A stretch of DNA of 50,279 nucleotides from Clostridiales bacterium (GTDB lineage Bacteria; Bacillota; Clostridia; Oscillospirales; RGIG5299): positions 1 to 50,279 of the forward strand of contig JAEEIO010000013.1 of assembly GCA_016281405.1 (NCBI GenBank), given 5' to 3'. A program made the translations under genes and the position numbers. How positions within the stretch are numbered: the first letter of the stretch is position 1; every line of letters starts with the position of its first letter. The notes under the pieces are model-generated. The model was given only the letters and a program-made list of their open reading frames with translations, did no database searches and was not told where the DNA came from. Positions 651 through 24,858 of this stretch are shown here, one piece after another.

Positions 651-654
651 ATAT

Positions 655-682
655 AAACGCCGTCCCGTTCGGAACGGCGTTT
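655..682 (-). terminator. Hairpin terminator after the amidohydrolase gene (end of the long ABC operon)
   Basis: aaacgccgt (655-663) pairs with acggcgttt (674-682). On the minus strand it is followed by a moderately U-rich tail (uauauuug). Confidence 0.5.
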
Positions 683-692
683 ATGATTTTAT

Positions 693-1469
693 TCAGATTT
701 TTACTCTCGGGAAGACCTTCAGAGCGGTCTTATAGAAGATGTTTTCCTTGTCCTCGTCGGTGAGGTCGGCGCCAAGCACAAGGCCCAGCTGCGCCGAGGG
801 GTCGAACCAGAACATATCGGAGCCGAAGACCATCTTATGACTTCCCGCGTGATTTGCGAGGTATTCGACGACGCCGTATTCGAAGGGGTCGCCCGCGATG
901 TCGAGGTAGGCGTTATCGTATTTCTTGGCCAAAGCCGCCGCGGCGCGGACGCCGTCGGTGCGGCCGCCCGAGTGACCGAAGACGAATTTGACGTCGGGAT
1001 ACTCTTTTATATACTCCTCGAAGAGCTCGGGCACCGCGTAGCGCTGATTGGGGTTATAAGACGAAAGCGCCCAGGTGTGCGACATTATGGGAAGGCCGTA
1101 TTTTCTCGCGGCTTCCCACGCGGCGCGGTATCCGGGGTCGTTTCCGAAGACGTGATGCTCGGTCGGATGTATCTTTATCGCGACGAAAGCGGGGTGGTCG
1201 TGGTATTTTTCCATGACCGCGAGGCACCTTTCGCTGTAACGCGGGTCGAAGAGGAAATAGTTAAATATCCTGTGGCCCGACTTCTCATAGTAATAAAGGC
1301 TTTCGTCGGCGCATTTCTCGTATTCGGTGAGGTTTAAGCCCTTGTTGGAGGCCTGGATTATGGCGTCGATCTTAAGCTCGTCCATACGCTTAAGGAGCGT
1401 TTCGAGGCTGTGGTCGAAGCAAAGAAAATCTATTATCTCGCCTATATGGGTATGCGTATCTATTATCAT
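693..1469 (-). CDS. Amidohydrolase-2 family metal-dependent hydrolase (TIM barrel; lactonase/decarboxylase-type)
   Basis: 258-aa ORF starting MIIDTHTHIGE (HxH metal motif), with later ...KIHPTEHH..., ...FGHSGG..., ...VFGSDMFW... SD AGGACAGGTG upstream. Last gene of the operon. Confidence 0.85.
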   Translation of the reverse strand: MIIDTHTHIGEIIDFLCFDHSLETLLKRMDELKIDAIIQASNKGLNLTEYEKCADESLYYYEKSGHRIFNYFLFDPRYSERCLAVMEKYHDHPAFVAIKIHPTEHHVFGNDPGYRAAWEAARKYGLPIMSHTWALSSYNPNQRYAVPELFEEYIKEYPDVKFVFGHSGGRTDGVRAAAALAKKYDNAYLDIAGDPFEYGVVEYLANHAGSHKMVFGSDMFWFDPSAQLGLVLGADLTDEDKENIFYKTALKVFPRVKI

Positions 1470-1505
1470 TTATGACACCTGTCCTTTGAAATAGCTTTAT
1501 TTTTT

Positions 1506-1535
1506 GTCCTTCCGCGGCAGGAGCCGCGGAAGGAC
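1506..1535 (-). other. Perfect 12-bp GC-rich intercistronic stem-loop with no U tract
   Basis: gtccttccgcgg (1506-1517), loop caggag, ccgcggaaggac (1524-1535). Lies between the permease stop (1545) and the amidohydrolase start (1469). It is followed by an A-run in the operon transcript, so it is not a canonical terminator. Confidence 0.6.
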
Positions 1536-1544
1536 AAACGGTGA

Positions 1545-2636
1545 TTATTCGACGAGACCGCTTCTCTCAATGCCCTGGACGAATTTCTTCTGCAAGAAGA
1601 TAAACATGACCATGAGCGGAGTGAGGGTCATAACGCTTCCCGCCATGACCGTCGCCGTATTGACTATATCGTCGTCGGTGACGGGACGTCCGAGCAGCTG
1701 CTCGAGCTCGTCTCTCGTGCGGAGGGACAGCGTGATAAGGGTCTTGATGCCCGAGGATAGGGGCTGCATATTCTGCTTGAAGTAGATGGAGGGCTCGTAG
1801 TAGTCGTTCCAGTGCCAGACTATCGACAAGACGAGGATGACAAGAAGCAGAGGTCTTGCCATCGGGACGACTATTCTGAAGAAGGTCCCGAGGAAGCCGC
1901 ATCCGTCAATTCGCGCCGCCTCCTCCATTTCCTTAGGCATACTGATAAGCGTCTGGCGGGCAAGGAAGATAAACAGTCCGCCTTTGAGGCCGAGGCCGAG
2001 GAAGGAGGGGACGAAGCTGGGTAAGAAGGTATCCGTCCACTTGATGTTCGCGAAGAGGATGTAGCTCGGGATAAGGGTGGTCTGAAGCGGGATGATTATG
2101 GTCAGTATGACCATGAGGAAGAGAAATCCGCGAAGCCTGAACTTATAACGCGCGAGGCCGTAGCCGACGAAGGTGCAGGAGACGAGGTGACCTACCGTGC
2201 AGACGGCGGTTATGAGGAGCGAGTTCCAGATGTAAGTCTTGAACTGCATGAGGGTAAAGGCCATCGAGTAGTTGGCGAAACGCAGGTTTCTCGGTATCCA
2301 TCCTATAGTGGGATCCATAAGGTCGGAGTTTGTCTTCAGAGAGGTGACCGCCATGAAAATAAAGGGATAGAGGAAGATGAAGGCGATGCCTATGAGAAGG
2401 ATATACATTCCGATCCTCAAAGCGGTGCTTCCCCAGAAGCGGGGCTGCTTCGCCTTACGGAGGAACAGCTCCCAGAGCTCTTTGGCCGAGCGGCGCTGTT
2501 TCTTCTGCTTTTCGGGTTTTTCGTTTATCACGTCGTTACCAGTTGTAGCGGCGTTTTTTCGCTTTGCGCATCGCACGTTCATCAGCTCCTTTCGTAGTAT
2601 CGGATCCGTAGCTTCTTCCGATGAAGAGGAAGACAA
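1545..2636 (-). CDS. Carbohydrate ABC transporter permease, MalG-like (second pair) with a charged N-terminal extension
   Basis: Six predicted TM segments and EAA loop EEAARIDGCGFLGTFFRIVVPMARP. The ORF overlaps the upstream permease by 101 nt, so the true start is more likely GTG 2531 (4 nt after the upstream stop) or ATG 2582. Confidence 0.85.
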   Translation of the reverse strand: MSSSSSEEATDPILRKELMNVRCAKRKNAATTGNDVINEKPEKQKKQRRSAKELWELFLRKAKQPRFWGSTALRIGMYILLIGIAFIFLYPFIFMAVTSLKTNSDLMDPTIGWIPRNLRFANYSMAFTLMQFKTYIWNSLLITAVCTVGHLVSCTFVGYGLARYKFRLRGFLFLMVILTIIIPLQTTLIPSYILFANIKWTDTFLPSFVPSFLGLGLKGGLFIFLARQTLISMPKEMEEAARIDGCGFLGTFFRIVVPMARPLLLVILVLSIVWHWNDYYEPSIYFKQNMQPLSSGIKTLITLSLRTRDELEQLLGRPVTDDDIVNTATVMAGSVMTLTPLMVMFIFLQKKFVQGIERSGLVE

Positions 2637-3702
2637 GCCCGACGAATACCAGTATGATCAGGGTGTATATCCACGAGACCGCCGCCGCTTTGTCGAACTG
2701 GTTCTGAGCGAGGGACATATCCTTTATGAGCTGCAGAACGTCGTTATCGACCGAGACGAAGGAGTCCGCTATGGAGTAGATAATGTTGACGACCATCATC
2801 GGCATTATCATGGGCAGCGTGATCTTCCAGAACTTTTCCCACTCCGTCGCTCCGTCGACGCCCGCCGACTCGTAAAGCGAAGGCGATATCGACTGGAGGC
2901 CCGAGAGGAACATGAGTATCTGAACCGAACACGACCACAAAACCGAAACTATGATGCTTAAGAAGTCGTTCACCATCTTGGTGAAGTCTCCGCCGAGATA
3001 GGCTATTACCGAGGGCGGGATAAGCGACGAACTGTTTATCGAGAGCGCGTTGGTGACGGCGCCGAGGGAATAAAGCTGTTCGAGAACGTAGCCCGTGCCG
3101 AGTATGAAGGGGAGGAAGAAGACCACTCGGAAGAAGCCCTTGAACTTTATGTTCCTGCTTATGATTATCGCAAGCAGCAGCGAGAAGATTATTATGAGGG
3201 GTATCTTGACGAAGGTGCCCGAAAGGATGTCGGTCAGGGCTCTGGTAAATCGCACGTCGTTTATGACGACGTCGATATAGTTGTCGAAGCCTATAAAGGA
3301 CATCTTGAGGCCGACTATCATATCGAGCTTGGAGAAGCTTAAGACTATCGACAGGATAAGGGGGAAGGCGAAGAAGGCAAGCAGACCGATCGTGAGGGGG
3401 AGAGTGAAGAAGTAGCCTTCGAGCGCCGCGCGCCTTTCGAGGTTTATAAATCTGTTAAGCCAGACTCTGAACTTCGAGGGGTTCTTCGCGCTCTTTGCGG
3501 CGTGCCTTTCGGCGCGGGTCATGCGCTTCTTCGGCGCCTTCTCCTCCGCGACCTTTTCGGTGACGGGGGCGATTGCCTCTGCCGCCTCCGCGGTCTCTGC
3601 CGCCTCGGTTTTTACCTCTTCGGCGACGGCTTCGGCCGCTTCGGCTTCGGTTTTTATTTCTTCGGCGACTTCCGCGAGGTTTTCGTTATCTTTCTTTTTC
3701 AA
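2536..3702 (-). CDS. Sugar ABC transporter permease, MalF-like (second pair) with a ~75-aa acidic/Ala-rich then basic N-terminal tail
   Basis: 388 aa. EAA loop YESAGVDGATEWEKFWKITLPMIMP and multiple TM segments. The N-terminus EVAEEIKTEAEAAEAVAEEVKTEAAETAEAAEA is encoded by a ~21-bp direct duplication (3600-3680). Confidence 0.85.
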   Translation of the reverse strand: MKKKDNENLAEVAEEIKTEAEAAEAVAEEVKTEAAETAEAAEAIAPVTEKVAEEKAPKKRMTRAERHAAKSAKNPSKFRVWLNRFINLERRAALEGYFFTLPLTIGLLAFFAFPLILSIVLSFSKLDMIVGLKMSFIGFDNYIDVVINDVRFTRALTDILSGTFVKIPLIIIFSLLLAIIISRNIKFKGFFRVVFFLPFILGTGYVLEQLYSLGAVTNALSINSSSLIPPSVIAYLGGDFTKMVNDFLSIIVSVLWSCSVQILMFLSGLQSISPSLYESAGVDGATEWEKFWKITLPMIMPMMVVNIIYSIADSFVSVDNDVLQLIKDMSLAQNQFDKAAAVSWIYTLIILVFVGLVFLFIGRSYGSDTTKGADERAMRKAKKRRYNW

Positions 3703-3718
3703 TGCTTCTCACCCCGTT

Positions 3719-6700
3719 TCATCTGATCTCGAAATCGTAAGCGCCGACCGTGACGCCTTCGATTTGCATGGCGGAGCCGGTATAGTTGATATAGAGCGTT
3801 TTGCCGTTCTCGTATCTCACTATCGCCGAGTTTCCGTTGTTTTCGTGATATATCATCGGCTGATCCCACACGTCGGAAAGCTTTTCGCTGCACTCGGTGT
3901 AGAAGCTGACGATATCTTCTTTCCACTGCCCGTATTCAGAGGAGAAGAGCTTGTTGTAATCGGAGAGCTTGAGGTTTTCGGTGGGTTCCTTGGTTATCTT
4001 ATAATAAGGTATGCTGCCGTATTCCACAAGTCTCAGCCTCTGGACCGTCTGGTCGTAGAAGAGGTTTATGGGCTCGTCGATATAGCCGACGTAGCCGTGG
4101 ATGACCATCTGGACGAAAGGCACCGATTTATAGGTTATATGATACTCGGACGATTTTTCGGGCATGCCCGTTATCATATTGGCGTATTTGAGGGTGTAGA
4201 GCGAGGCTCCTTCGACCGCGAGCAGATCGGTGTTCTCGGCGAGGTCGGCCATCGTTCTGTCCCAACCGTTCAGCGTATCCGTCCTCGTGTGGATAAGGGT
4301 GCTTCCGTTATAGTTCTGGAAGAGGATGTTGCCGACGGTGTTCGCCGCGACGCCGCTGAAGTTTATGGATTTGACGTTCCTTGCGAGCGACTTCATGTTT
4401 CTCTCGACCGCGACGTAGTTTAAGAAGTAGTTTTTGCCGGTGAAGTCGGTGACGGCTATCGAGTTGCCGTAGTTGATTATGTCGTTCTTGGTCGAGAAGC
4501 CGCCGTTATCGATGTTGGCCTTTATGGGCTCGACCTCGAGGAGCGTCTTCGCGCCTATCGACTTGGCGTATTCGGCGTAGCTCCTCGCTCCCGAGGCGCC
4601 GCCGACGGCCGATTCGACGGGCCACGTCGTCGGATATTTCCCGAAGCCGCCTCTCGCGTAGCCGACGAATTTCGCGACTATGTTGTCGACTCCCGCTTTA
4701 TAGAGGTCTTCGGTTATCGTCTTGGCGTCCTGGAAGGAGGTCATCTTGACTATCTTGGTGAAGAGTATCTGGCTCTCCCACGTCGACATAAAGAAGTCGA
4801 GGACTATCGGGATCTTGGTGTTGACCGAGGTGATGTTATCCTTGAGGTCGCCGTTCTTTATGAGGTAGGCGCGGTAGGCGTTCGCGAGGCCGCTGTAGTT
4901 GGCGTCGTCGCCCGAAAGGAAGGCGTATCTCACTTCGTGAGAAATATCGGAGACGGGTTTCTCGCTGTATTTCTTGCCCGCTATCTTCTTGACGTTGATG
5001 CTGCCTATCGTGTTGCCGTAGCTGCCGACCGTTATGTTGGTGGCAAGTATTTCGGTGGTGTAGCGATAGCGGAAACGGAGCGACGAGCGGTAGAGGTCGA
5101 CCGCGTAGCCCGCGGGCGAGGTGACGACCGAAGCTTCGGCGTCGGCGCCAGCGGAGTAGCCGACGACGGCGACCTTATCGGTTTCGTTGACCATGCCGAA
5201 CACGGGGAGGTTGGTGCTCTCTATGCGGGTCTCGTTCCTGCGGTATTTGTCCATATCGAGAACGTCGGTGCCGCCTACCGAGAAGGCGTATTCCTTGGCG
5301 TAGATGCTGTTGACGTTTTCGTTGAAGTTTATCATCATGCCCGAGCCGTCGGGGATGATGGTGTAGCCGTCTTTCCTGCTGTTGCAGGCGCCGAGGAAGG
5401 GGAGAATCTCGATGTCGACTATCTTTCTCGCGGTGTCGCCGGAGCCCTTCTCCTTTATGGAGTCGTTGAGTATCTTGGCGTAGAGGGTGCCGTCAACGAG
5501 GCCGAACTCGACGTCGAAGGATATTTTGGCTTTGGTGAAGTCGAAGGACATTATCAGCTTGCTTCCCGAGATCCTGTAGTCGACCTTGCAGTCGGCCGAC
5601 GACGCCGAGGCGTAGGCGACCTTGGTGCCCGTCGCGGATTCGGAACGGAGCTGGTCGGCGTAGAGGACTACGAGGGAGCGCATGAGGTTCTTCCAGCGCG
5701 GGATGAGGTCGGGATCGGCGATGTCGTATTCGGTTTCGTCGACGCCGGCGCGCCAGAGGTAAGGCTTATCGGGGTTCTGGCTGTCGAGGACGAATATCGA
5801 GTTGCACTGGAGACCGGTGGTGACGGTGACGGTTTCGGTGCCGTAGACGGTGTAGTAGCAGTCTACTTTGACGGTGACCGCGTTGCCTTCCTTACGAAGG
5901 CCGGTGAAGTATTCATAGTCCGCCAAGAACTGCTTCTTTAACTCTTTGAAATCGTTTACGGTCTCTATGGCGTAGTCGTTCACCGTAACCTTGGTGTTTT
6001 CGGGCTTTTCACCGGTGGCGGGGTCTATAATGGTTTCGCCCGTGCCCTTCTTTATTTCGATGGAGTAGTTGATTTTGCTGTAGAGAGGACTGTCGGGGAC
6101 TTCAAATATCTTTTTGAAGTCGGCCTCTTCCATGTCGGCGGGCTTCTTGCGGAGACCCGTCGTCACGCCGAGCTCGGTGTTCCATGCGTTTTCGGTGACG
6201 TAGTCGAAGAAGAAGAGGGCTTTCTCGGCCGCGGTGGCTCCCACGACGACCTCTTCGCCGCTATCGTTCTTTTCCTTGACGTCTTTGATCTCCTCGCTCG
6301 TCGTCTTCTTGGCGGCGCTGCTCTGCTTGGCGTAGCTTATTTTGACGGCGTCGCCGAGCTTTTTGTTCGCCATGACGTTGACGTAGTCGCTGACGGAGTC
6401 GAGCGGAACGTCGTCGACGGCGGTGATGAGAGCGCCCGCCTCGAGGCCTTTGTCGACCATGTCGGGAGTCATGCCGTTCGCGGGCGAGGCAAATCCGCCG
6501 ATTATGAGGCCGGAGGGTCTGACCTCGTCGACCTCGTGGGTGAGTTTGGCTTCGAGCATGCCGGTAAGGCGGTCGGCGACCACCTTGTCGGCGGTGAAGA
6601 CGCTTTCCTTTAAGCATCCGCTGTAACGGACGAAATAGAGTTTGAGGTTTCCGCTCGTCGCTATGGGCGACGCGAAATCTATCTCCATTTCGGCAAGGCT

Positions 6701-6820
6701 TTCGGCGGGGAACTCATAGGTCTGCCGTTCGGCCTTGGTATCGGCGGAGACTATGAAGGAAAGGGCCGGCGCCGTAAGGGCTATCGCTATGAGGATCGCT
6801 ATAAATCTTTTTAATTTCAT
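3719..6820 (-). CDS. Large secreted protein: signal peptide, PDZ-like domain, C-terminal DUF5696-like (possible glycoside-hydrolase-type barrel) region
   Basis: 1033 aa. Signal peptide MKLKRFIAILIAIALTAPALSFIVSADT. PDZ-like stretch GLIIGGFASPANGMTPDMVDKGLEAGALITAVDDVPLDSVSDYVNVMANKKLGDAVKISY. The C-terminal ~450 aa resembles what I remember of DUF5696 proteins found next to CUT1 ABC genes (from memory, unverified). SD GGAGGCGGAAAG. Confidence 0.6.
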   Translation of the reverse strand: MKLKRFIAILIAIALTAPALSFIVSADTKAERQTYEFPAESLAEMEIDFASPIATSGNLKLYFVRYSGCLKESVFTADKVVADRLTGMLEAKLTHEVDEVRPSGLIIGGFASPANGMTPDMVDKGLEAGALITAVDDVPLDSVSDYVNVMANKKLGDAVKISYAKQSSAAKKTTSEEIKDVKEKNDSGEEVVVGATAAEKALFFFDYVTENAWNTELGVTTGLRKKPADMEEADFKKIFEVPDSPLYSKINYSIEIKKGTGETIIDPATGEKPENTKVTVNDYAIETVNDFKELKKQFLADYEYFTGLRKEGNAVTVKVDCYYTVYGTETVTVTTGLQCNSIFVLDSQNPDKPYLWRAGVDETEYDIADPDLIPRWKNLMRSLVVLYADQLRSESATGTKVAYASASSADCKVDYRISGSKLIMSFDFTKAKISFDVEFGLVDGTLYAKILNDSIKEKGSGDTARKIVDIEILPFLGACNSRKDGYTIIPDGSGMMINFNENVNSIYAKEYAFSVGGTDVLDMDKYRRNETRIESTNLPVFGMVNETDKVAVVGYSAGADAEASVVTSPAGYAVDLYRSSLRFRYRYTTEILATNITVGSYGNTIGSINVKKIAGKKYSEKPVSDISHEVRYAFLSGDDANYSGLANAYRAYLIKNGDLKDNITSVNTKIPIVLDFFMSTWESQILFTKIVKMTSFQDAKTITEDLYKAGVDNIVAKFVGYARGGFGKYPTTWPVESAVGGASGARSYAEYAKSIGAKTLLEVEPIKANIDNGGFSTKNDIINYGNSIAVTDFTGKNYFLNYVAVERNMKSLARNVKSINFSGVAANTVGNILFQNYNGSTLIHTRTDTLNGWDRTMADLAENTDLLAVEGASLYTLKYANMITGMPEKSSEYHITYKSVPFVQMVIHGYVGYIDEPINLFYDQTVQRLRLVEYGSIPYYKITKEPTENLKLSDYNKLFSSEYGQWKEDIVSFYTECSEKLSDVWDQPMIYHENNGNSAIVRYENGKTLYINYTGSAMQIEGVTVGAYDFEIR

Positions 6821-6835
6821 ATCTTTCCGCCTCCT

Positions 6836-9259
6836 TTACAACAGTATCATGCGAATTTCGGTTATTATGCTCTCGACGAAGTTGATGACCTGGCCGATGA
6901 GCGTTATGCCGAGGATGCTGACCATCCAGATGAGAATCATCATAAGGCCTACGACTATGCCGACTCTTATCGTCTTGCCGACGCTGTAGTCGTTCAGCGT
7001 CTTAAGCCCGCCTATCATCAGGAAGAATACCCAGACGGAGGATATCTGTAAAAGTGAGCTCCAGATATCGAACTCGGACTGGCAAAGGACGTGGCTTAAG
7101 GGGATGAGGATCAGCGTCATGAAGATGTAGGGTATCTCGGCCATCGCCGTGGCGTAGAATATCTCCTTGAACTTCGATTCGCCGTCCCATATCGACGTTA
7201 TCGCGATGCTCGCGGCGGCCCACGTTATGGGCGGCAGGAGCATCTTGATGATTTCGAGCGCTATGTTCGCGTTTCTCGGTTCGAGGTCGGCGAGAGGATA
7301 GTGGACGAGGAAGATGAAGGCGAGTCTTACGACTACGACCAGCACGAAGACCACTATCGGCGGCCACCACATCAGTTTGTCGGCCGAGCCTTTTATACGG
7401 TCAAACAGTTTGAAGGGCGACCGGAGCGTGCCGACGAATATCTGAGCGTTTTTCTTGACCGACCATTTCTTTCTGCCCTCTTCGGACGAGAAGGAAAGCG
7501 CGAGGTCGGCCGTCTTGGCTATTCCCTTGAAGAGGAAGAAGACGCCGAAGCCTATCGCGACGGCAACCACTACTATAAGGAAGAAATACTGGCGGAAGGT
7601 CTCGCGGCGCCATTCGCCGAAGGCCTGCGAGTAGCCTGCGCGGTCCTGCGCGAGATAGTAGAGGTCCATGGCCTTTGCGTAGTTGCCGTCCTTGAACTCG
7701 GTCTTGGCGAGGCCGACGTGAGCCATGTCGTAGGTGGAGGTCATCGCGAGGACTTCCTTCCACGTCTCGGAGGCGGCGTCGTATTTGCCTTCGGAGTAGT
7801 AGTTGACGGCTTCGTGGACTTTGGTTATGAAGGCCGTGGGTTTGAATATCTGAATGGAATTGAGGTTTTTATCGAGGACGTAGATGCTGCCCTGGCTGTC
7901 GACTGCGAGCGATTCGGGATATTCGAAGGTGCCCTTCGAGTCGCCCAGACCGCCGAAGACGGTGAGGCAGTTGCCCTCCTGGTCGTATTGATAGAGCTTG
8001 CCGTTGTTTCTCTCGAGAACGGTCACGATGCCCGTATCGTCGACGCATATATCGGCGAAGACCGGGAACTGATAGAGGCCTCTCTCGTTGACGCGCTCGC
8101 CAAACCAGAAGGTCTCGCCGAGCAGGCTCGCCTTAGCGAAGAAGAGAGCGAGGGGGTTGGTGTCGCTCGAGAAGAAGCTCGCGACCAAGGAATCGTAAAT
8201 GCTTCCGGTGCCGCCGCCGCCGTAGTTCTTATATATGTTGTCGCCGACGGAGTTGAGCCTCTTTATCTCGCCGCCCAGGGTGTCCTGCGTGACGGCGTAG
8301 ACGAGGGCGTCTTTACCGAGGGTGATGTTAAGATAGAACTTGGCGTAGGTCTTGGTCTTGCTCTTGACGTATTCGCTGAGGCCCAAAGCTCTGTATATCG
8401 CGAGCTCGAGGTCGAAGGCGACCGAAGCCTGTCCGAAGTAGCCCTTGAATTCGTTGTTGTCGTCGAGAGTCATGACCGACTCCTTGACGACGACGTAAAG
8501 ATAACCGGTCTTGGTCTTGATTATCTTCGCGGGGGCGTAGTTGGTGGATATCTCTTCGTCGGTGATGAGGTCGGAGGTCGGGATACCGTAAACTCTGACG
8601 AGGGAGCCGTCCTGCGCTATCGTGACGATGCGTTTGTTCTCGGTGTCGGCGACGTAGATGTTGTCGTTCTCAAAGTCGGCGATGAATACGCCGCGGGGAC
8701 TCGAGAAGGAGGAGAACTCGTTTACGGTAATCTCTTTGGTGAGGGTCACTTCCCTCTCCTTGACGACCTCTTCGCCGTCAACCGTTTCGGTATACTGTTC
8801 GACGCCCTGCTTTTCGCCCGTCTTGACGGTCTCCGCAAAGTAGCCGCCCCAGATACCCAAGAGCTCCTGATTTCTGTTGAACTTGACGATACGGTTGTTC
8901 TTGGTGTCGGCCACGTAGATGTTGTCGTAAACGTCGATGAAGATGTCTTCGGGCGAGGTGAGCTCTATTTTATCGCCCACGTCGACCTTGACCTCTTCGT
9001 ATTCCGCCGTTTCGACGGCGTAGCCTTCGGCGTCGACGACGGTCTTTTTGTTGCCCGTGGCTCTCCAGTAGGTGAACTCGGAGAAAGCCTCGATCTCCAT
9101 TATGACCGTTTCGACGTTGTAGGTGGTGGGTATGGCCGTCCTGCCGTCGATGCCGTGAGGGATGTAGTTATCGCTTTCGGCGCCCGCGCCTATGCAGAGA
9201 AGTCCGACGAGGACGAGGGCCGCGAGGGTCACGCTTAAGATACGCTTTACCGTTTTCAT
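6836..9259 (-). CDS. Signal peptide + NHL-repeat beta-propeller + TPR-like segment + C-terminal Yip1-type multi-TM domain
   Basis: 807 aa. NHL-like repeats DNIYVADTKNNRIVKFN, DNIYVADTENKRIVTIAQDG, GSIYVLDKNLNSIQIFKP. Then a TM segment (FFLIVVVAVAIGFGVFFLF) and about five further TM helices with Yip1-like spacing. Confidence 0.65.
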   Translation of the reverse strand: MKTVKRILSVTLAALVLVGLLCIGAGAESDNYIPHGIDGRTAIPTTYNVETVIMEIEAFSEFTYWRATGNKKTVVDAEGYAVETAEYEEVKVDVGDKIELTSPEDIFIDVYDNIYVADTKNNRIVKFNRNQELLGIWGGYFAETVKTGEKQGVEQYTETVDGEEVVKEREVTLTKEITVNEFSSFSSPRGVFIADFENDNIYVADTENKRIVTIAQDGSLVRVYGIPTSDLITDEEISTNYAPAKIIKTKTGYLYVVVKESVMTLDDNNEFKGYFGQASVAFDLELAIYRALGLSEYVKSKTKTYAKFYLNITLGKDALVYAVTQDTLGGEIKRLNSVGDNIYKNYGGGGTGSIYDSLVASFFSSDTNPLALFFAKASLLGETFWFGERVNERGLYQFPVFADICVDDTGIVTVLERNNGKLYQYDQEGNCLTVFGGLGDSKGTFEYPESLAVDSQGSIYVLDKNLNSIQIFKPTAFITKVHEAVNYYSEGKYDAASETWKEVLAMTSTYDMAHVGLAKTEFKDGNYAKAMDLYYLAQDRAGYSQAFGEWRRETFRQYFFLIVVVAVAIGFGVFFLFKGIAKTADLALSFSSEEGRKKWSVKKNAQIFVGTLRSPFKLFDRIKGSADKLMWWPPIVVFVLVVVVRLAFIFLVHYPLADLEPRNANIALEIIKMLLPPITWAAASIAITSIWDGESKFKEIFYATAMAEIPYIFMTLILIPLSHVLCQSEFDIWSSLLQISSVWVFFLMIGGLKTLNDYSVGKTIRVGIVVGLMMILIWMVSILGITLIGQVINFVESIITEIRMILL

Positions 9260-9272
9260 GCGCGTCGCCTCC

Positions 9273-10208
9273 TTAACCCTTGATGCCCGCGTAGGTCATG
9301 GTCTCGATAACCTTACGCTGCATTATGACGAATATGACTATTGTCGGGAGAGTCATGAGAAGACTGGCCGCCGCGACTATGCCGGCCGTGGCAAGGGTCG
9401 CCGCGCCGGCGCCGCCCGCAAGGCTCTGGAGCGCAAGAGGAAGCGTTCTCATCGACTGCTTGGAGATGAATATGAGGGGCGTGAAATAGTCGTTCCACGA
9501 TCCGACGAAGGAGAAGACTATGAGGGCGGAGAGAGCGGGCTTCTGGGCGGGCATGACAATCTTCCAGAATATCCTGAACTCTCCCGCGCCGTCGATTCGC
9601 GCGGCCTCTATAAGCTCGTAGGGGTATTGGTCTATAAACTGTTTCATGAGGAAGAAGTTGCCCGACGCGCCGACGGAAACTATTATGATGCCGACGTAGG
9701 AGTCGAGCAGGTGCAGGTTTGAAACGACGAGGAAGGAGGGTATTCTCGTGACGTAGGGCGAGAACATGAGGGTCGCTATGACGACGCTGAATATTATGTT
9801 CTTTCCGGGGATGTTGAACTTGGAAAGACCGTAGGCGCCCATCGAGCAGACCAGGCAGGTGCCCGCCACTATGCTGACCGTAAGCACTATACTGTTGAAA
9901 AGATAACGGGTAAAGGGCACGGTCGAGTTCGAAAGAGCCGTAAAGAGGTTGGTGAAGTTATCGAGCGTCGGCTTTTCGACGAAAAACCTCGGAGGATAGT
10001 AGAAAAGCTCGTCGTAGGGTTTCAAGGAGCTTGAAATCATATAGACTATCGGAAGGAGGCAGAAGACGGCGAGAAGTATCATAAAGATATAGAGCAATAC
10101 CCAACCGACCGTTATGTGACGGAAGCCGCGGCGGATATCCTTCATCTTTTCGATAAATCTCTTTTTGAAGGGTTCTTTCGCTATTACTTTTGTCGATTCG
10201 TAATTCAC
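9273..10208 (-). CDS. Carbohydrate ABC transporter permease, MalG-like (first pair)
   Basis: 311 aa, 6 TM, EAA loop IEAARIDGAGEFRIFWKIVMPAQKP. Starts 17 nt after the upstream permease. Confidence 0.9.
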   Translation of the reverse strand: MNYESTKVIAKEPFKKRFIEKMKDIRRGFRHITVGWVLLYIFMILLAVFCLLPIVYMISSSLKPYDELFYYPPRFFVEKPTLDNFTNLFTALSNSTVPFTRYLFNSIVLTVSIVAGTCLVCSMGAYGLSKFNIPGKNIIFSVVIATLMFSPYVTRIPSFLVVSNLHLLDSYVGIIIVSVGASGNFFLMKQFIDQYPYELIEAARIDGAGEFRIFWKIVMPAQKPALSALIVFSFVGSWNDYFTPLIFISKQSMRTLPLALQSLAGGAGAATLATAGIVAAASLLMTLPTIVIFVIMQRKVIETMTYAGIKG

Positions 10209-10225: not shown

Positions 10226-11161
10226 TCATTCGTCGGTGGATCTGAGGATCCGCATTATTATTTTACCTATTATAAAGGTCATGAGGAAGAGCACGACGGC
10301 TATGGCCGAGGCGTAGCCCATCTGGAAGCGGACGAAGGCGTAGTCGTAAAGGTGGGCGACTATCGTGTGTGCCGCGTAGTTGGGCGAGGGGAAGCCCGCG
10401 ACGTTGACCGCTATGTCGAAGACCGCGAGGGCGCCCGTTACCGAGGTGATGGCGCCGTAGAGGAGCTGAGGCTTCATCGAGGGGAGGATTATATACTGAA
10501 GCTCCTGGAACTTGGTCTTGATGCCGTCTATCCTGCCCGATTCGAGAAGCTCGCGGTTGAGGTTCTGAATACCGGCGAGGAAGACGAGGAAGCCGCCGCC
10601 CATACTCATCCATATCTGGATTATGATTATGACCGTCATAATATAGGCGGGGTTCAAGGTCCACGCGATGGGCTCGGAGATAAGTCCGATATTGAGTAGG
10701 AAGTTATTCAGATAGCCGTATTTATCGCTCGAGAAGACGACCATCCAGATAACCGACATCGCGACGCCCGAGGTGATGGAGGGGATATAGAAGGCGAGGG
10801 CGAAACCGGTCTTGAATTTGAGGTTGTTTATGACCCACGCCGAAACGAAGGACATCAGATAACCCACGGGACCGGTGATTATCGCGAAGGTGAAGGTGTT
10901 TTTAAGGGAGAGGATGAATATATCGTCATCCAGGAAAAGGAGTCTGTAGTTGGTGATACCCGCGAAGGTCGGCGCCTCTATCATATTATAATTGGTAAGG
11001 CTGAGGCCCATCGCGACTATGACCGGGGTGATGGTGAAGACTATGAAGAGGATGAAGAACGGGAGGAAAAAGAGCAGTCCGACCCAGTTTTTCGTAAGCT
11101 TTTTGGGCTTTCTCTTCTTGGCAATAAGCGGGGATTCCACCGCCGCGTTAACAGCGTCCAA
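10226..11161 (-). CDS. Sugar ABC transporter permease, MalF-like (first pair)
   Basis: 311 aa. EAA-like loop LESGRIDGIKTKFQELQYIILPSMKP. TTG start directly abuts the TAA stop of the binding protein, with AAGGAGGG 8 nt upstream. Confidence 0.9.
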   Translation of the reverse strand: MDAVNAAVESPLIAKKRKPKKLTKNWVGLLFFLPFFILFIVFTITPVIVAMGLSLTNYNMIEAPTFAGITNYRLLFLDDDIFILSLKNTFTFAIITGPVGYLMSFVSAWVINNLKFKTGFALAFYIPSITSGVAMSVIWMVVFSSDKYGYLNNFLLNIGLISEPIAWTLNPAYIMTVIIIIQIWMSMGGGFLVFLAGIQNLNRELLESGRIDGIKTKFQELQYIILPSMKPQLLYGAITSVTGALAVFDIAVNVAGFPSPNYAAHTIVAHLYDYAFVRFQMGYASAIAVVLFLMTFIIGKIIMRILRSTDE

Positions 11162-14155
11162 TTATGCTCCCTCCTTTTCGTAAAGATAACCGAAGCCGTA
11201 TTCCTCGTGCTTCATCTTGAGCTCGCGGTTTATTGCTATGACCGCTTCCTCAAGAGCGTCTCTCAGGTTGAGACCGTTCATAACGACCTTGGTCCACGCG
11301 TTGGTGAGGTGTCTTGCGGTGAAGTATCCGCCGAGGACGTAGGGATATTCGTAGACCCACTTTCTCGTCTCGCGGATGACGTTCAGGTCTTCGACGCTCC
11401 AGTTCATCTTGTCGAAGGCGTTAAGGTTGGCGGAGTTCCATCTGGCGGCCTCGCCGACGATGCCCTCGATGCTGACGCCGTATTCGGTCTGGGTCTCTTC
11501 GCTCATCCACCATTTGAGGAGCTCCCAGCATTCGTCGGGCATTTCGGTCCCGCTCATGACGAAGGAGGAGGTGCCGACCGAGCCGCTGTGCGTTCTGTTG
11601 ACCGATTTGGTGCCGTCTTCGTTCTCGACCTCAAGGCCGGGCATAAGGGCTATGGCCCAGCGGCCGTTGAGCTCGGGCGCGGCGGCCTTCAGCTGGATGT
11701 AAGTGGCGAAGCTGCCCATGCCGCAGGGAGTCTCGCCCGTGCGGAATCTGTTATAGAAGTCCTGCGCGACGGGGACTGCGTATTTGGTGAAGAGGTCGGT
11801 CTGTTCCTTCATCGCCATATAGGCTTCGGCGGTGTCGAGACCCGAATAGAGAAGGTCTTCGGTGTAGACGCTGCCGCCGTATTGGAGAAGGTAGGAGGTC
11901 TCGTCACGGCCGAGCGCTATCGTCATTTCTCTGGCGTAGAGGACGGGCAGAACGTAATTGTAAATATCCTGTCTGGACTGGGGGACCTCAAGGCCTAACT
12001 GCTCGAAGATGTCGGTGCGGTAGAAGAAGGCTCTGAAGTCCATCGTCTCGGGAAGACCGTAGATGCCGCCGTTGTAAGTCAGGGGGTTGAAGATGACGGG
12101 GAGGAACCACTCTTTGACTTCCTCGAAGTCGTCGTACTTACTGAGGTCGAGCGTCGCGTGTCTGACGGCGAACTCGGCGGGCGAGCCGCTGTCGGCCGAG
12201 ACGCAGACGTCGGGGACGTTGACGCCGGACGCAATGGCGAGCATCAGCGCGTTGGTCGCGCCCGCGGAAAGCTGACCGGCGGGCATTATGGCGAGCTGAA
12301 CGCCTATGTCTTTCTCGGGAGTGAAGGTGTTGTCGGCGAGTTCCTTGAAGAGCTCGGCCCAGTCGATGCCTCGGGCGATCCATACCTTGAGCACCTTTTC
12401 GGGTATCTTCGCTCCCTCGACGCCCTTTATGCTGTCGTAGTCCTTGACGAAGGAGAGGAAGAAGTTCTTAACGGAAGACGAAAACTTGTCCCAGAAGGAC
12501 GCGACGCGGGACGGGAGCTTGTATTCGTCGGTATATACGGTAAAAATGTCTATCGCAAGAGGTTGTGATTGAAGCGAGGAATAGTAAGTCGAGAGACTCG
12601 TCTGCGCGCTTAGGAAGTCGGTGTCGTAAAGTCTCGCGACGCGGTATTCGTATTTCACGGCGGTGTCGAAGGCGGTCTTCAGATATTTGAAGCTGTTGGC
12701 CATCGAGGGTATTCTGCCGTTCGCGGCGATGTCGACGAGGAAATCGTATTTCCAGGCCATGCTGTCGCTCATTATCTGGAACTTTTTCCGGAAGCCCCTC
12801 TTGTCGTTGCCGTCGTAGAAGCCGTAGTCGTAGTTATAGTCGGGCTTCGAGCCGGTTATGGTGCGTATGTCGCTCATGAAGCCGTTCATAAGCTCCATAT
12901 CGTAGTAGATCGACTGGATGAGCGGGGTGTAGTCGCCCATGACGACGGTCATCGTGATGGTGTGGACGCCCTCGTCGAAATAGTAGTAAACGGGCGCGCC
13001 GTCCACCTCGAGGGTGTAGTTCATCCAGTCTTTTCTTTCGAGATATCTGAACTCGTATTCGACGAACTCGGAGAAAGGCACCTCGCCGTCTATCTCTATC
13101 TTACGGTAGACGGATATGCTGTCGTTATAGGCCTGCCATTCGCGGAAGGCTATCTTATAGGTGCCCGCCTTTTTGACCTCGAAGCTCCAGGTGAGCGCCT
13201 TGCCCGCCTTGACCCAGGTGCCGCTGCCTATTATGTTGAGGATCTTCTTATCCCACTGATAGGGAGAGCAACCGGGGTCGCCGTCGGCCTCGCGGCGGAT
13301 GGCGCTGCCGTTGCGCTCTATCGGGAACTCGGCCTCGAACTCTATAGGCTCAGACGTGGCGGCCTGCTTGTCAAGGCCGTCCTTCTTTAAGGCCGCGGTA
13401 TATTCGGCGTAGGTCATAAGCTGTTTCTGCGGCTTGACGGTGAGGTCGCCGAATACCATGTCGCCCGAATAGTAGACCATCGAGACGGTATGCTCGCCCG
13501 CCTCGAAATAGATGGCTATCGGCATCGCGTAGAAGCCGTAGTAATCCATAAAGCCGGACTCGCGCCACTCCTCGATCTCCACCGCGCGGGGCCTCATCTC
13601 GTCGCCGTCGGTGTTCTTTACACGGACGGCGCCGTTTTCGTCGGTGAAATAGCGGTAGAACATGTGGTTGTCGGCCTCGTAGTAGAGCTTCTCTCCGTCG
13701 AAGAGGAGCTTACGGACGGGGTCGGCGCCGTTGCCCGCGGGGATGAAATAGTCGAGCGAGAACTCGTAAAGTCCCGCTTCGGCAACGGTGAAGGTCCAGG
13801 TCAGCGTTCCGTCCTCATAGGTCCAGAGGGAACCCGTCCTCTTGTCGCCCTCGGGCCCGTAAAGTCCCGTCTCGACGGCGCTGCCGTCCTCTTTCCTGAC
13901 GGTTTCGGGCGTGATGACGACGGTGTTGCTTTCCACGTCCGCGGGGGCGGTATAGCCCGCCTTGAGATAGCTCTCGTAGAGCCTGGTGTAGAAAGGCACG
14001 TCCATCAGCTCGGCGATAAGCTCGTCGGTGTAGGGGTCTTCGACGCCGTAGGTGAATTGCGCGGCGCTTGCGAACAGACCGCAGACCGACGGCATTATGA
14101 GGAACACCGTCAGCACGACCGACAGAAGCCTTGCGAGCTTTCTGCTTGTTTGCAT
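11162..14155 (-). CDS. Giant extracellular solute-binding protein: two CBM-like beta-sandwich modules + CUT1-type SBP domain
   Basis: ORF 11162-14164. I prefer ATG 14155 (GGAAAGGA 9 nt upstream) over TTG 14164. Two similar N-terminal modules (LTWTFTVAEAGLYEFSLDYF... and LTWSFEVKKAGTYKIAFREW...). The C-terminal ~440 aa look like a type-1 sugar SBP (VLKVWIARG..., GLPETMDFRAFFYRTDIF...). Confidence 0.8.
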   Translation of the reverse strand: MQTSRKLARLLSVVLTVFLIMPSVCGLFASAAQFTYGVEDPYTDELIAELMDVPFYTRLYESYLKAGYTAPADVESNTVVITPETVRKEDGSAVETGLYGPEGDKRTGSLWTYEDGTLTWTFTVAEAGLYEFSLDYFIPAGNGADPVRKLLFDGEKLYYEADNHMFYRYFTDENGAVRVKNTDGDEMRPRAVEIEEWRESGFMDYYGFYAMPIAIYFEAGEHTVSMVYYSGDMVFGDLTVKPQKQLMTYAEYTAALKKDGLDKQAATSEPIEFEAEFPIERNGSAIRREADGDPGCSPYQWDKKILNIIGSGTWVKAGKALTWSFEVKKAGTYKIAFREWQAYNDSISVYRKIEIDGEVPFSEFVEYEFRYLERKDWMNYTLEVDGAPVYYYFDEGVHTITMTVVMGDYTPLIQSIYYDMELMNGFMSDIRTITGSKPDYNYDYGFYDGNDKRGFRKKFQIMSDSMAWKYDFLVDIAANGRIPSMANSFKYLKTAFDTAVKYEYRVARLYDTDFLSAQTSLSTYYSSLQSQPLAIDIFTVYTDEYKLPSRVASFWDKFSSSVKNFFLSFVKDYDSIKGVEGAKIPEKVLKVWIARGIDWAELFKELADNTFTPEKDIGVQLAIMPAGQLSAGATNALMLAIASGVNVPDVCVSADSGSPAEFAVRHATLDLSKYDDFEEVKEWFLPVIFNPLTYNGGIYGLPETMDFRAFFYRTDIFEQLGLEVPQSRQDIYNYVLPVLYAREMTIALGRDETSYLLQYGGSVYTEDLLYSGLDTAEAYMAMKEQTDLFTKYAVPVAQDFYNRFRTGETPCGMGSFATYIQLKAAAPELNGRWAIALMPGLEVENEDGTKSVNRTHSGSVGTSSFVMSGTEMPDECWELLKWWMSEETQTEYGVSIEGIVGEAARWNSANLNAFDKMNWSVEDLNVIRETRKWVYEYPYVLGGYFTARHLTNAWTKVVMNGLNLRDALEEAVIAINRELKMKHEEYGFGYLYEKEGA

Positions 14156-14187
14156 CTGCTTCAATCCTTTCCGGGAAAATGATAGAC

Positions 14188-14215: not shown

Positions 14216-14243
14216 ATTATATACAAATCGCTTGATTTGTCAA
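14216..14243 (-). promoter_or_regulatory. Strong sigma-A promoter of the ABC/NHL-Yip1/DUF5696-like operon
   Basis: Minus strand reads TTGACA (14238-14243), 16-nt spacer, TATAAT (14216-14221). Confidence 0.7.
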
Positions 14244-14472: not shown

Positions 14473-14502
14473 AAAAAAACGGAGGAAAATCCTCCGTTTT
14501 TT
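14473..14502 (-). terminator. Bidirectional rho-independent terminator after the URO-D-like gene
   Basis: cggagga (14480-14486), loop aaa, tcctccg (14490-14496), flanked by A7 and T6 runs. Confidence 0.8.
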
Positions 14503-14514
14503 AATCTTTATGAA

Positions 14515-15520
14515 TTAAACGGCGCTGTTTTCGAGTATGACTTTCTTCGCCCACTCGGCCCATTCGGGCTTTACGCCGATGTTGTCGTAGCCGCCGCCGT
14601 AGTCCTTGGCTATCCAGCCGCCGCCGGCCGCTCTGAAGAGTTTGCACATCTCGAGGGCGCGGGATTCTATGAACTCTTTGTCGCCCGTGGGAAGAACCTT
14701 CTGTATGTCTACGGGTGAGTAGAAAACAACCCTGTCGGCAAACTCGGAGGCAAGCACCTCGGTCGGATAGACGTCGGGCTGGTCGAACTGAAAGACGTCG
14801 ATGCCCGCGTCGATGAGGTCTTTCATAAGGACGTAATTTTTGCCGCAGGAGTGCATGAAGGTCGCCATACCCGCTTCGTGGGCGGCGTCGGCTATCTTGC
14901 GGTAGTAGGGTTTTATAAGCTCTCTGAAGGTGTCGGGAGACGAAGGTGCTTTCCTGCGTGCCGAGGTCGTCGCCCAGAAACCACGCGTCGAAGCCGCATC
15001 CCGCGATGCTTTTGATTATCTGCGCTTCGTGGTCGGAGACCATATCCATAAACTCGGCGACGTGCTCGGGCTCTATAATCATATCCATCAGAGCGTTTGT
15101 CATCAGGCGGGCGTCACGAAGGGTCGAGAAGACCTGACGGCCGACGGCGACTACGAATTTCTCGGAGTGGGCGAAATCGTGCTTAAGGAATTCCTCACGG
15201 TAGTTCGGGTCGAATTCGGGCATTTTGAAGGTGTAGTCGTCCCAGTCCTGAATCACGCCCCTCACGCACTCGCCGTTGGTCTTTCCGTTGAAACGGCCGT
15301 AGATATTGCCGAAAATATCGCGGCGCACCTCGCCCTTGAAGCCAGAGAGCTCCTTGAGTTCGGGGTAGTCGCCCCAGTTTTCGTAGGGGTTGGGTTCGAG
15401 GTTTATATAGCGGCGCGACCAGACCATCGCGAAGTCGGAAGGGCCGCCTATGAAATCGAAGCCGAAGCGGGGCGGATTATCGTGTCTTATAAGGCGTTTG
15501 ATTACTTCTTTCGACGTCAT
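14515..15520 (-). pseudogene. Uroporphyrinogen-decarboxylase (URO-D/MtaA-like) family gene interrupted by a frameshift near 14935-14943
   Basis: ORF 14501-15520 is protein-like up to ...DDLGTQESTFVS, then turns into Arg-rich nonsense. The adjacent frame continues SPDTFRELIKPYYRKIADAAHEAGMATFMHSCGKN... into ORF 14515-14868. The joined length (~335 aa) fits the family. Confidence 0.75.
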
Positions 15521-17852: not shown

Positions 17853-18911
17853 ATGAAAATCTCCGACATCGACAAAAACTTTGCCACGCCCGTCGCCTGC
17901 GAGGACGGCATAGCCTACTACTCGCCCTTCGAGGCGCCGTTTGAAATCGACGGGCTCCCCGAGTGGAAGCGTAACGGCAATCTTTCCCGTCTTACGAAGG
18001 AGCTTCAGCAAGACGAAAAGCTATTCCACGGCGTCAGGGCGCTTGCGTCCTGCACCGCGGGCGGCATGATAAGATTCCGGACCGATTCGCCCGTCGTCGC
18101 CGTCAAATACACCCAGCCCGAGCTTTACACCCACCCCAATATGTGCCTGATCGGCGCCGCGGGTTTAGACCTCTACATCGGGTCGGGCGCCTCGAAAAAA
18201 TACCGCGCGAGCATGCTCCCCGCCGAAAACGGCGAGACGGCGGTAAGGACGATAAACGTCGACGAGGGCTTTAAGGAGATAACGATAAATCTTCCCCATT
18301 ACGCGGGCATTAACGAGATAAGCGTCGGCGTCAAAGAGGGGTGCCGCGTCGCCGCGCCGAAGCCTTTCAGGGTCCCTCATCCCATTTGCTTTTACGGCTC
18401 GTCTATAACACAGGGCGGATGCGCCTCCCATTCGGGCAACACCTACACCGCCGTCGTCGGCAGGACGCTAGACGCCGAGGTCATTAATCTCGGCTTTTCG
18501 GGCAGCTGCAAGGGCGAGCTTCTGATGGCCGATTATATCAACACGCTCGAGCTTTCGGCCTACGTCTACGATTACGACCACAACACCCCCGACGTGCAGT
18601 TTCTCAAAGATACCCACCTCGCCTGCTACGAGAGAGTCCGCGAGCATCACAAGGACCTGCCCATCGTCATCCTCTCGAAGCCCGACTACCACGATTACGC
18701 GCCCGACGACGAGCTTCGCCGCCAGGTAGTCATAGCGACCTACGAAAAGGCGAAGGCGCGGGGCGACCGCGTGGCGTTCGTGGACGGCAAGTATATCATG
18801 GACGGCCCGCGCAAGCTCGACTGCACCGTCGACGGCTGTCATCCGAACGACCTCGGCTTTTACAGGATGGCAAGGAAGGTCATAAAGGCGCTCAGGGAGC
18901 TGGGAGTGTAA
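17853..18911 (+). CDS. SGNH/GDSL hydrolase-type esterase with N-terminal GxDLY beta-sandwich domain (carbohydrate esterase-like)
   Basis: AAGLDLYIG (GxDLY), FYGSSITQGGCAS (catalytic Ser block), INLGFSGSCKGE, DGCHPNDLGFYRMA (DxxH block). Confidence 0.8.
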   Translation: MKISDIDKNFATPVACEDGIAYYSPFEAPFEIDGLPEWKRNGNLSRLTKELQQDEKLFHGVRALASCTAGGMIRFRTDSPVVAVKYTQPELYTHPNMCLIGAAGLDLYIGSGASKKYRASMLPAENGETAVRTINVDEGFKEITINLPHYAGINEISVGVKEGCRVAAPKPFRVPHPICFYGSSITQGGCASHSGNTYTAVVGRTLDAEVINLGFSGSCKGELLMADYINTLELSAYVYDYDHNTPDVQFLKDTHLACYERVREHHKDLPIVILSKPDYHDYAPDDELRRQVVIATYEKAKARGDRVAFVDGKYIMDGPRKLDCTVDGCHPNDLGFYRMARKVIKALRELGV

Positions 18912-19022
18912 ATAATAACGAAAGAACGCCCCCGCCTCGACGGCCGCGCGAAGCGCGGCGGATCCGCCGCGGCCGCTTTTTCCGATATTACAAGCCGCGC
19001 CGACAGATACGCGGCGGAATTG

Positions 19023-19056
19023 AAAATCCCCTGCTCGAAAACGAGCAGGGGATTTT
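19023..19056. terminator. Bidirectional terminator between convergent genes
   Basis: aaaatcccctgctcg (19023-19037), loop aaaa, cgagcaggggatttt (19042-19056): a perfect 15-bp stem including A/T runs. Confidence 0.85.
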
Positions 19057-19070
19057 GTCGGGGCGGGGGT

Positions 19071-20735: not shown

Positions 20736-20753
20736 TTTTATTTCCTCCTCCGT

Positions 20754-24074: not shown

Positions 24075-24151
24075 GTTATCATCCTTTCACGGAAAGATTT
24101 CCGCATATAATGGAACATTTTATATTATAAATTATATTGAGTGAATAGTCA

Positions 24152-24167
24152 ATAACAATATTATTAT
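24152..24167. promoter_or_regulatory. AT-rich imperfect palindrome, Fur/PerR-box-like, just upstream of the rubrerythrin -35
   Basis: ATAACAATATTATTAT: 14 of 16 positions are self-complementary around AATATT. Confidence 0.3.
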
Positions 24168-24179
24168 CTTGAAAAAGTC

Positions 24180-24208: not shown

Positions 24209-24249
24209 TAAATCAGGCGAAAAAATAACACCGAAAGGAAGATATAAAA

Positions 24250-24845: not shown

Positions 24846-24858
24846 GATTCGATTGTGT

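Follow-up and report, generated by a model that had tools for sequence, protein, structure and literature searches.

Positions 1-50,279 of the contig JAEEIO010000013.1 (called the window here; assembly GCA_016281405.1, Clostridiales bacterium of the Oscillospirales, RGIG5299) carry on the minus strand, at 6836-9259, an uninterrupted open reading frame (ORF) of 807 amino acids (aa) plus stop. In its product, a secreted NHL propeller of six blades stands on a TPR stalk, and one transmembrane (TM) helix, TM1, together with a five-helix Yip1 bundle keeps them on the outer side of the membrane. This NHL-Yip1 protein is a constant, unstudied part of the sugar-uptake gene set of many plant-fibre-degrading Gram-positive bacteria, and it is encoded within and co-inherited with the transporter genes, as is the case for accessory subunits of ATP-binding cassette (ABC) transporters. 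Our preferred, still tentative reading is that it is a non-catalytic, membrane-anchored organiser (an accessory subunit) of a conserved two-channel glycan-uptake cassette. A literature search, which did not extend to supplementary tables, returned no paper on the NHL-TPR-Yip1 architecture or on DUF5696, the family of its downstream neighbour. The parts of the protein are as follows.

6836..9259, minus strand: complete NHL-TPR-TM1-Yip1 protein (ORF, translation, Pfam, hydropathy, AlphaFold2).
9176..9259, minus strand: signal peptide, aa 1-28, with a basic start, a hydrophobic core at aa 7-25 and GAGA followed by E; cleavage is predicted (hydropathy; pLDDT <50 at aa 22-28).
7835..9175, minus strand: outside part, aa 29-475, an N-terminal strand region and the six-bladed NHL propeller (Pfam, alignment, profile, model, fold searches).
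7586..7834, minus strand: TPR-like helical stalk, aa 476-558, ending in a conserved GYSxAFxxxR juxtamembrane motif (Pfam, profile, model, conservation).
7529..7585, minus strand: TM1, aa 559-577, the C-terminal anchor of the propeller/TPR module, just after which split forms stop (hydropathy, model).
7361..7528, minus strand: basic cytoplasmic loop, aa 578-633, with 12 Lys/Arg and an invariant P615; the fusion junction (hydropathy, conservation, comparison with split forms).
6839..7360, minus strand: five Yip1 membrane helices and a C-terminal helix, aa 634-807 (Pfam, hydropathy, model).

Both named domains are found in the window protein above Pfam cut-offs. NHL (PF01436) matched in three stretches at E = 2.3e-17 (62.5 bits, cut-off 20) and was found in all 37 fused homologues; Yip1 (PF04893) matched at E = 3.7e-8 (33.9 bits, cut-off 28.6) across aa 610-779 (nt 6923-7432), covering profile positions 2-171 of 173, and was found in 36 of the 37. 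A sequence-only reading of the same DNA had proposed a signal peptide, NHL-like blades, a TPR-like helical stretch, one plus five TM helices around a short basic loop, and a Yip1-type domain, all of which are borne out; the blade motifs it quoted lie at aa 112-128, 199-218 and 457-474. Support for the TPR stretch comes from the modelled helices and from profiles rather than from Pfam, where every TPR family stayed under its cut-off in the window protein (for example, TPR_16 at aa 484-541, E = 5.2e-5, 24.0 bits, cut-off 32.7). TPR_2 was matched by 14 of the 37 homologues, and the family profile searched against PDB sequences matched consensus TPR proteins at 2.5e-32. NCBIfam gives the protein no name (best match ScyF, 73 bits, cut-off 350). 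A hydropathy scan resolved the N-terminal signal at aa 7-25, a 533-aa acidic outside part, TM1 at 559-577, a 56-aa loop with 12 Lys/Arg, and five further hydrophobic helices near 634-652, 670-688, 703-721, 732-750 and 767-785, and the AlphaFold2 model concurs on the Yip1 membrane helices. By the positive-inside rule, the predicted topology places the propeller outside, the basic loop inside and the C-terminus outside. The LLC at aa 20-22 was considered as a lipoprotein signal and rejected, as a lipobox has Ala, Gly or Ser just ahead of the Cys and the residue here is Leu.

The AlphaFold2 model of the full protein, built on a 44-row alignment, has a mean predicted local distance difference test score (pLDDT) of 85.8 and a predicted template modelling score (pTM) of 0.76, with pLDDT >90 over most blades. 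It shows six four-stranded blades (aa ~100-474, with a poorly modelled insert at aa 347-382), then five helices at 476-557, a long helix running through TM1, and the Yip1 helices. Two long beta-hairpin insertions on the propeller, aa 62-92 and 139-184 (pLDDT about 93-95), occur in the alignment only in the window protein and its three closest relatives (P0007-P0009) and account for its length of 807 aa, compared with about 715 aa elsewhere. Fold searches with the full model effectively covered aa 32-483 only. Foldseek matched TRIM71 at 1.4e-15, and the all-against-all search gave the NHL domain of Lin41 (Z 26.4, root-mean-square deviation 3.6 over 276 residues), TRIM71 (Z 26.0), peptidyl-hydroxyglycine lyase (PAL; Z 24.3), the PknD sensor (Z 23.1) and lactonases (Z 21-22). 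At the level of sequence, the family profile matched the PknD-derived Pizza designs (3.9e-70) and PknD itself (1rwi, 8.7e-35). The top fold and sequence matches are therefore to the non-enzymatic NHL class.

The transporter context proposed from sequence was likewise confirmed, the neighbours being ABC permeases and a solute-binding protein (SBP). The operon genes all lie on the minus strand, separated by 0-17 nt, in the order giant SBP, two permeases, NHL-TPR-Yip1, DUF5696, two permeases and amidohydrolase_2.

14216..14243, minus strand: promoter-like site, TTGACA, 16 nt, TATAAT (12/12), just upstream of the first operon gene; a consensus match only.
11162..14164, minus strand: giant SBP, 1000 aa (SBP_bac_8, 2.5e-15 at aa 632-895).
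10226..11161, minus strand: ABC permease A, 311 aa, 6 TM, UgpA/GlcT-like (Pfam/NCBIfam).
9273..10208, minus strand: ABC permease B, 311 aa, UgpE-like (UgpE model at 1.4e-44, under its cut-off).
3719..6820, minus strand: DUF5696 protein, 1033 aa (DUF5696, 1.3e-137).
2536..3702, minus strand: ABC permease C, up to 388 aa, 6 TM, with an acidic low-complexity N-terminus (Pfam, topology).
1545..2636, minus strand: ABC permease D, up to 363 aa in its longest frame, 6 TM (Pfam, topology).
693..1469, minus strand: Amidohydrolase_2 protein, 258 aa, the last gene ahead of the terminator and outside the conserved seven (Pfam, synteny); it has no NCBIfam name.
653..684, minus strand: terminator-like hairpin, 14 pairs then T-rich, at the operon end; a consensus match only.

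Outside the window genome, the first seven of these genes travel together. A scan of one genome per species, queried with a 16-row alignment, returned 80 loci, six of which (L056, L060, L067, L071, L073 and L079, from Syntrophales, Desulfobacula, Chloroflexia, Nitrospiraceae and the like) held unrelated NHL proteins without the neighbours and were set aside. Among the other 74, tblastn matches to all seven window proteins on one strand were found in 65, and 63 had them in the window order; the remaining 11 (L039, L055 and nine others) are all interrupted by a contig end, making the seven-gene order identical in 63 of 63 uncut loci. Gene ends overlap, with a median gap of -4 nt at the junction of NHL-Yip1 and DUF5696 (stop to start; 38 fused loci) and the same median between DUF5696 and permease C (57 loci). 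Carriers belong to the Lachnospiraceae, Oscillospiraceae, Acutalibacteraceae, Paenibacillaceae and Bacillaceae, with one member of the Carnobacteriaceae and one Chloroflexota metagenome-assembled genome; cultivable ones include Ruminiclostridium hungatei and, among loci L011-L048, species of Paenibacillus or Cohnella. Genes outside the seven vary, and include extra ordinary binding proteins, MalK-type ATPases, enzymes or modules of GH26 + CBM35, GH130, GH38 and CBM65, and regulators of LacI/GntR, AraC or two-component type. Given these differing flanking enzymes and regulators, the role of the cassette may be generic across glycans; where GH26 and GH130 flank it, the glycan would be mannan.

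Presence across genomes follows the same pattern. In a sample of 401 genomes drawn evenly from the phylum, 34 matched the protein at E ≤ 1e-10, three of them (G034, G043 and G373) by a short NHL stretch only, leaving 31 carriers, or about 8% of the sample. Full-length DUF5696 (E < 1e-100) was detected in 32 genomes, among them all 31 carriers; G350 alone has DUF5696 and no propeller-Yip1 protein. These are counts over related and hence non-independent genomes, with no statistic attached.

Searches of protein collections show how widespread the architecture is. A word-indexed search scored 8000 candidates and returned 455 proteins at E ≤ 1e-3; among the 120 matches listed, 68 carry Yip1 (hand count) and 67 of those also NHL. 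Most such relatives are about 700 aa long and come from Clostridia, Paenibacillus, Cohnella and Bacillus relatives; their source names are 'YIP1 family protein' and 'NHL repeat-containing protein'. Another class, of about 470-510 aa, has NHL/TPR only. An exhaustive search of cluster representatives with the Yip1 part (aa 561-807) found 903 at E ≤ 1e-3, 251 at 1e-10 and 15 at 1e-30, and the best 150 are either ~670-805 aa with a C-terminal match or ~200-230 aa. The fusion is thus not rare, with hundreds of clusters and with split genes in many loci, but it carries no functional annotation; the sequence-only reading, which would have fallen had the architecture proved both common and annotated, survives this check.

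The two modules have been joined and separated repeatedly. Propeller, TPR, TM1 and Yip1 share one frame in 42 loci, and in L074 as far as its contig reaches, and are divided between two adjacent genes in 29 of 72 scorable loci (two others end too soon to score). For 22 of the split loci, the Yip1 part was located by tblastn in the following frame; in the other seven, the next ORF is 206-229 aa long, has 5-6 hydrophobic helices and matches Pfam Yip1 at 39.6-63.7 bits. Since the break always falls just after TM1, the fused protein amounts to a propeller/TPR protein with a C-terminal anchor that continues, through the cytoplasmic loop, into a canonical Yip1 protein. A maximum-likelihood tree was built from the propeller/TPR columns of 73 rows (44 fused, the window among them, and 29 split; L009 and L064 omitted as truncated; a quick-search tree with two long branches flagged). 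On it the fused/split state changed at least 10 times, and well-supported branches force at least six of these changes. With the labels shuffled, the mean rose to 23 changes, and none of 500 shuffles was as low as 10. That the propeller/TPR and Yip1 modules act as one unit follows from their repeated fusion and splitting.

Conservation within the protein is concentrated in repeat and junction motifs. Against 36 fused homologues, identity is 31% for NHL, 33% for TPR, 19% for TM1, 14% for the loop and 22% for Yip1, compared with 44% for permease A, 40% for permease B and 23% for DUF5696. The positions kept in at least 80% of 37 rows are mostly those of the NHL repeat motif (D105, D118, N121, R123 and D205 among others), the TPR signature, the juxtamembrane motif (Y543-S544...R551) and the Yip1 part with its loop (P615, G693, P710, E729, W743, F794 and E801). 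The conserved cytoplasmic loop region holds the invariant P615 and a G693-E694 motif.

The giant SBP has an N-terminal hydrophobic segment without a lipobox, ~580 aa without a domain match and then the C-terminal SBP_bac_8 part, which is of oligosaccharide type and matches Lin1841 (5ysb) at 8.9e-11. DUF5696 begins with an N-terminal hydrophobic segment followed by a poorly modelled 300-aa region with a weak PDZ-like match and a GH129-like body. A profile of 62 DUF5696 homologues matched the PDB entries ZgGH129 (5opq, 1.1e-13) and NagBb (5wzn, 5.1e-12), in an alignment that stops ahead of the second (catalytic) half of the barrel. The AlphaFold2 model (pLDDT 75.4 overall, high from about residue 340) extends the likeness: Foldseek matched 5opq at 1.0e-31 (TM-score 0.69-0.71 on the target) and 5wzn at 4.0e-26 (0.71-0.73), followed by GH101, GH36 and GH31 enzymes. 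On this model, DUF5696 is predicted to have the overall GH129 fold, with an N-terminal beta domain, a (beta/alpha)8 barrel and C-terminal beta domains. At two alignment columns an acidic residue is retained, in 51 and 48 of the 62 sequences respectively and at both columns in 42; the window protein has N836 and Y897 there, and four more sequences lack both acids (L001-L003, with Asn and Thr, and L080, with Ser and Thr). If these two columns are the catalytic pair, the GH129-like protein of the window lineage may be inactive.

A lipoprotein-type motif was found within the first 80 residues of only 7 of 71 giant SBPs and 7 of 66 DUF5696 proteins, using a crude pattern on uncertain starts. Such scarcity is unusual for Gram-positive binding proteins. 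Most N-termini of both families carry a long uncharged segment, and many in DUF5696 resemble uncleaved signal anchors; these segments could be signal anchors. As they mostly lack the motif, the giant SBP and DUF5696 would need another means of membrane retention. The four permeases are all BPD_transp_1 proteins, nearest to UgpA, UgpE, GlcT and GlcU models. A likelier start for permease D is the ATG at codon 19 (nt 2582), behind GAAAGGAG. Permease C begins with ~60 codons for a cytoplasmic extension of low complexity, rich in Ala and Glu, which its homologues do not share; at 3630 in this gene, 15 nt are missing in frame from a DNA contig of another sample. There is no ATPase gene in the operon; one MalK-type gene lies on a different contig of the assembly, which is 1.70 Mb, 89% complete and has a single copy each of the NHL-Yip1 gene and DUF5696.

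Several of these properties together suggest an organiser. The protein sets two classical interaction modules, a propeller and TPR repeats (a protein-binding module), on a robust membrane anchor and lacks an output domain; its halves have been repeatedly fused and split; and it is strictly tied to DUF5696 and two permease pairs, whatever the flanking enzymes. In the proposed arrangement, the Yip1 bundle would have as its neighbours in the membrane the permeases and/or the anchors at the N-termini of the binding protein and DUF5696, and the TPR stalk and propeller would keep either those large extracellular proteins or the glycan chain itself above the two import channels. Once captured, a chain could be processed and its pieces imported without drifting off, with the ATPase presumably supplied by an unlinked MalK/MsmX-type gene. 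The accessory transporter role suggested by the sequence-only reading, still putative, fits the strict synteny and co-occurrence.

Several observations weigh against an organiser. The role is drawn from gene context, and gene order by itself would not prove a complex. The outside part (~31% identity) diverges as fast as substrate-facing proteins and far faster than the permeases (40-44%), which would also suit substrate binding. Six-bladed propellers of this fold include enzymes, PAL and the lactonases among them, and 31 of the 37 homologues have weak SMP-30/gluconolactonase (SGL) matches in Pfam. None of the best 150 Yip1-part relatives exceeds 805 aa, and no fusion to a permease, DUF5696 or a binding protein was found; longer fusions of aa 476-807 were likewise absent from 1818 scored candidates among proteins of 1414-4035 aa, which is weak evidence. 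A complex prediction for aa 476-807 with permeases A and B (37-row alignment per chain) scored 0.01, with the mark at 0.32, and counts neither for nor against contact.

The main rival, which is compatible with an organiser and which we consider doubtful, is a surface glycan-binding receptor: the propeller would bind polysaccharide and pass it to the giant SBP or DUF5696, with Yip1 as an anchor only. Surface glycan-binding proteins are known from Bacteroides utilisation loci, and a six-bladed propeller encoded in a nutrient-uptake locus of Bacteroides and deposited as an 'auxiliary nutrient binding protein' (3tc9) matches at Z 20.5, although no better than dozens of unrelated six-bladed propellers do. 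The substrate-like divergence noted above (23% for DUF5696), the clade-specific hairpin insertions and the flanking enzymes, which imply glycans that differ between loci, all favour a receptor; but Pfam scans detected no carbohydrate-binding module signature in the protein, and a plain anchor needs neither a conserved five-helix Yip1 domain nor a TPR stalk, as a single helix (TM1, as in split forms) suffices.

Enzyme and sensor roles are less likely. It is improbable that the propeller is a lyase, lactonase or esterase acting on incoming glycan at the membrane surface: the fold is shared with PAL, lactonases, virginiamycin B lyase and strictosidine synthase, and SGL matches recur among the homologues, but the window protein scores 19.3 bits for SGL against a cut-off of 26.3, its best sequence and fold matches are to the non-catalytic NHL class, and no catalytic signature was found in it. 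Furthermore, the residues kept at 80% or more trace the repeated blade motif rather than one pocket, and unrelated glycosidase sets beside the cassette argue against a single fixed chemistry. Equally unpromising is a sensor or gate in which ligand binding to the propeller, of the kind proposed for the PknD sensor domain, would be relayed via TM1 and Yip1 to switch the permeases or gene expression: its appeal lies in PknD, a kinase sensor domain, being the closest bacterial structural relative and in the conserved cytoplasmic loop, but Pfam scans detected no kinase, helix-turn-helix, cyclase or other output domain, the adjoining regulators differ between loci, and signalling through the chain is made less likely by the propeller and Yip1 being separate polypeptides in 29 loci. 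The signalling component that the sequence-only reading had offered as one option is thus disfavoured.

Known systems resemble parts of the organiser and its cassette. YknW, a member of the Yip1 family, is described as a fourth component of the ABC exporter YknWXYZ in Bacillus subtilis and influences the oligomeric state of YknX, its partner (PMC4338810; YknW is also treated in PMC4887032). Like the window protein, it is a bacterial polytopic membrane protein of the Yip1 family in an ABC transporter operon, accessory rather than core (PMC4338810; PMC4887032). The earlier statement that bacterial Yip1 proteins have no established function therefore needs qualifying, and a transporter role here would be not wholly unprecedented. 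Unlike the window protein, YknW as presented there works with a MacB-type exporter that includes a membrane-fusion protein, lacks an outside part of propeller or TPR type and is described with four TM helices (PMC4338810); the two are likened by description, not sequence. In the window, the transporter belongs to the type I sugar importers and has two permease pairs, and the Yip1 part bears a 530-aa ectodomain.

The transporter itself resembles CUT1-type importers (MalFGK2/UgpAE-like) that share an MsmX/MalK ATPase, in its BPD_transp_1 permeases, its oligosaccharide SBP and the lack of an ATPase in the operon. To our knowledge, CUT1 importers have one permease pair, a ~400-aa lipoprotein SBP and no propeller-Yip1 or GH129-like partner, whereas the cassette combines, as fixed parts, two permease pairs, an SBP of 1000 aa that lacks a lipobox and two additional proteins. 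A six-bladed NHL propeller is also present in PknD of Mycobacterium tuberculosis (1rwi), where one TM helix joins it to a kinase, and in the eukaryotic TRIM-NHL proteins, which bind RNA or protein in the cytosol; a TPR stalk and a Yip1 domain are absent from both. Pfam places the eukaryotic Yip1/Yif1 (YIPF) Golgi proteins in PF04893 as well, and their layout of a cytosolic N-terminal stretch, five membrane helices and a C-terminus on the far side matches that predicted for the Yip1 part of the window protein. As YIPF proteins work with Rab GTPases in vesicle traffic and bacteria have no Rab GTPases, family membership is uninformative on function here.

Sequencing libraries place the locus in animal guts. 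A 10-kb stretch was present at half or more of the sampled words in 10 of the 24 runs listed, those 10 being bovine, sheep or other animal gut metagenomes; holders span 12 studies. A 9175-nt DNA contig from a different sample covers 697-9869 with 167 differences; it comes from a close strain and keeps the gene order. Short contigs on the operon (150-330 nt, depth 2-4, at least 95% alike) came from three RNA libraries belonging to two studies, and two of these contigs (6765-7029 and 6772-6980) span the NHL-Yip1/DUF5696 junction; DNA carry-over is possible in these libraries, the contigs cannot demonstrate a single transcript, and uncovered stretches are uninformative.

Other features of the window lie upstream of the operon. 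The minus-strand ORF 14501-15520 (339 aa) is protein-like over its first ~200 residues and ends in an Arg-rich, frameshift-like nonsense tail, with no Pfam or NCBIfam match; since one RNA-library contig has two extra bases (GC) after 14936, the break may be an assembly error or strain difference rather than the mark of a dead gene. An SGNH/GDSL esterase is encoded at 17853-18911 (plus strand), just upstream of the operon region, followed by two large right-handed beta-helix proteins at 19071-20735 and 20754-24074 (both minus strand), one of which has a weak rhamnogalacturonidase-like match (E = 1.2e-5, far under its cut-off); these neighbours (17853-24074) may hint at a pectin-type substrate. 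G+C content falls to 0.44-0.47 in 24001-28000, compared with about 0.55-0.60 around it, and four ORFs scanned there (157-234 aa) have no Pfam match; this segment may be foreign or mobile DNA.

The usual description of a Gram-positive ABC sugar importer lists a single binding protein, two permeases and an ATPase, and the cassette adds three fixed, unstudied proteins to that set. A bolder version of the organiser, which we regard as rather unlikely, would make the protein the hub, within the membrane, of a stable supercomplex, a Gram-positive 'utilisome'; just as speculatively, a single Yip1 bundle would there tie together two ABC channels, the giant tethered SBP and the GH129-like protein to capture, trim and import long glycans. 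If true, this would be the first defined nutrient-uptake role for a bacterial Yip1 domain. An organiser role, if correct, would show how single-membrane bacteria hold large glycans, enzymes and channels together at their surface, would provide a function for the bacterial Yip1 family and would bear on how fibre-degradation capacity is inferred from gut and rumen genomes.

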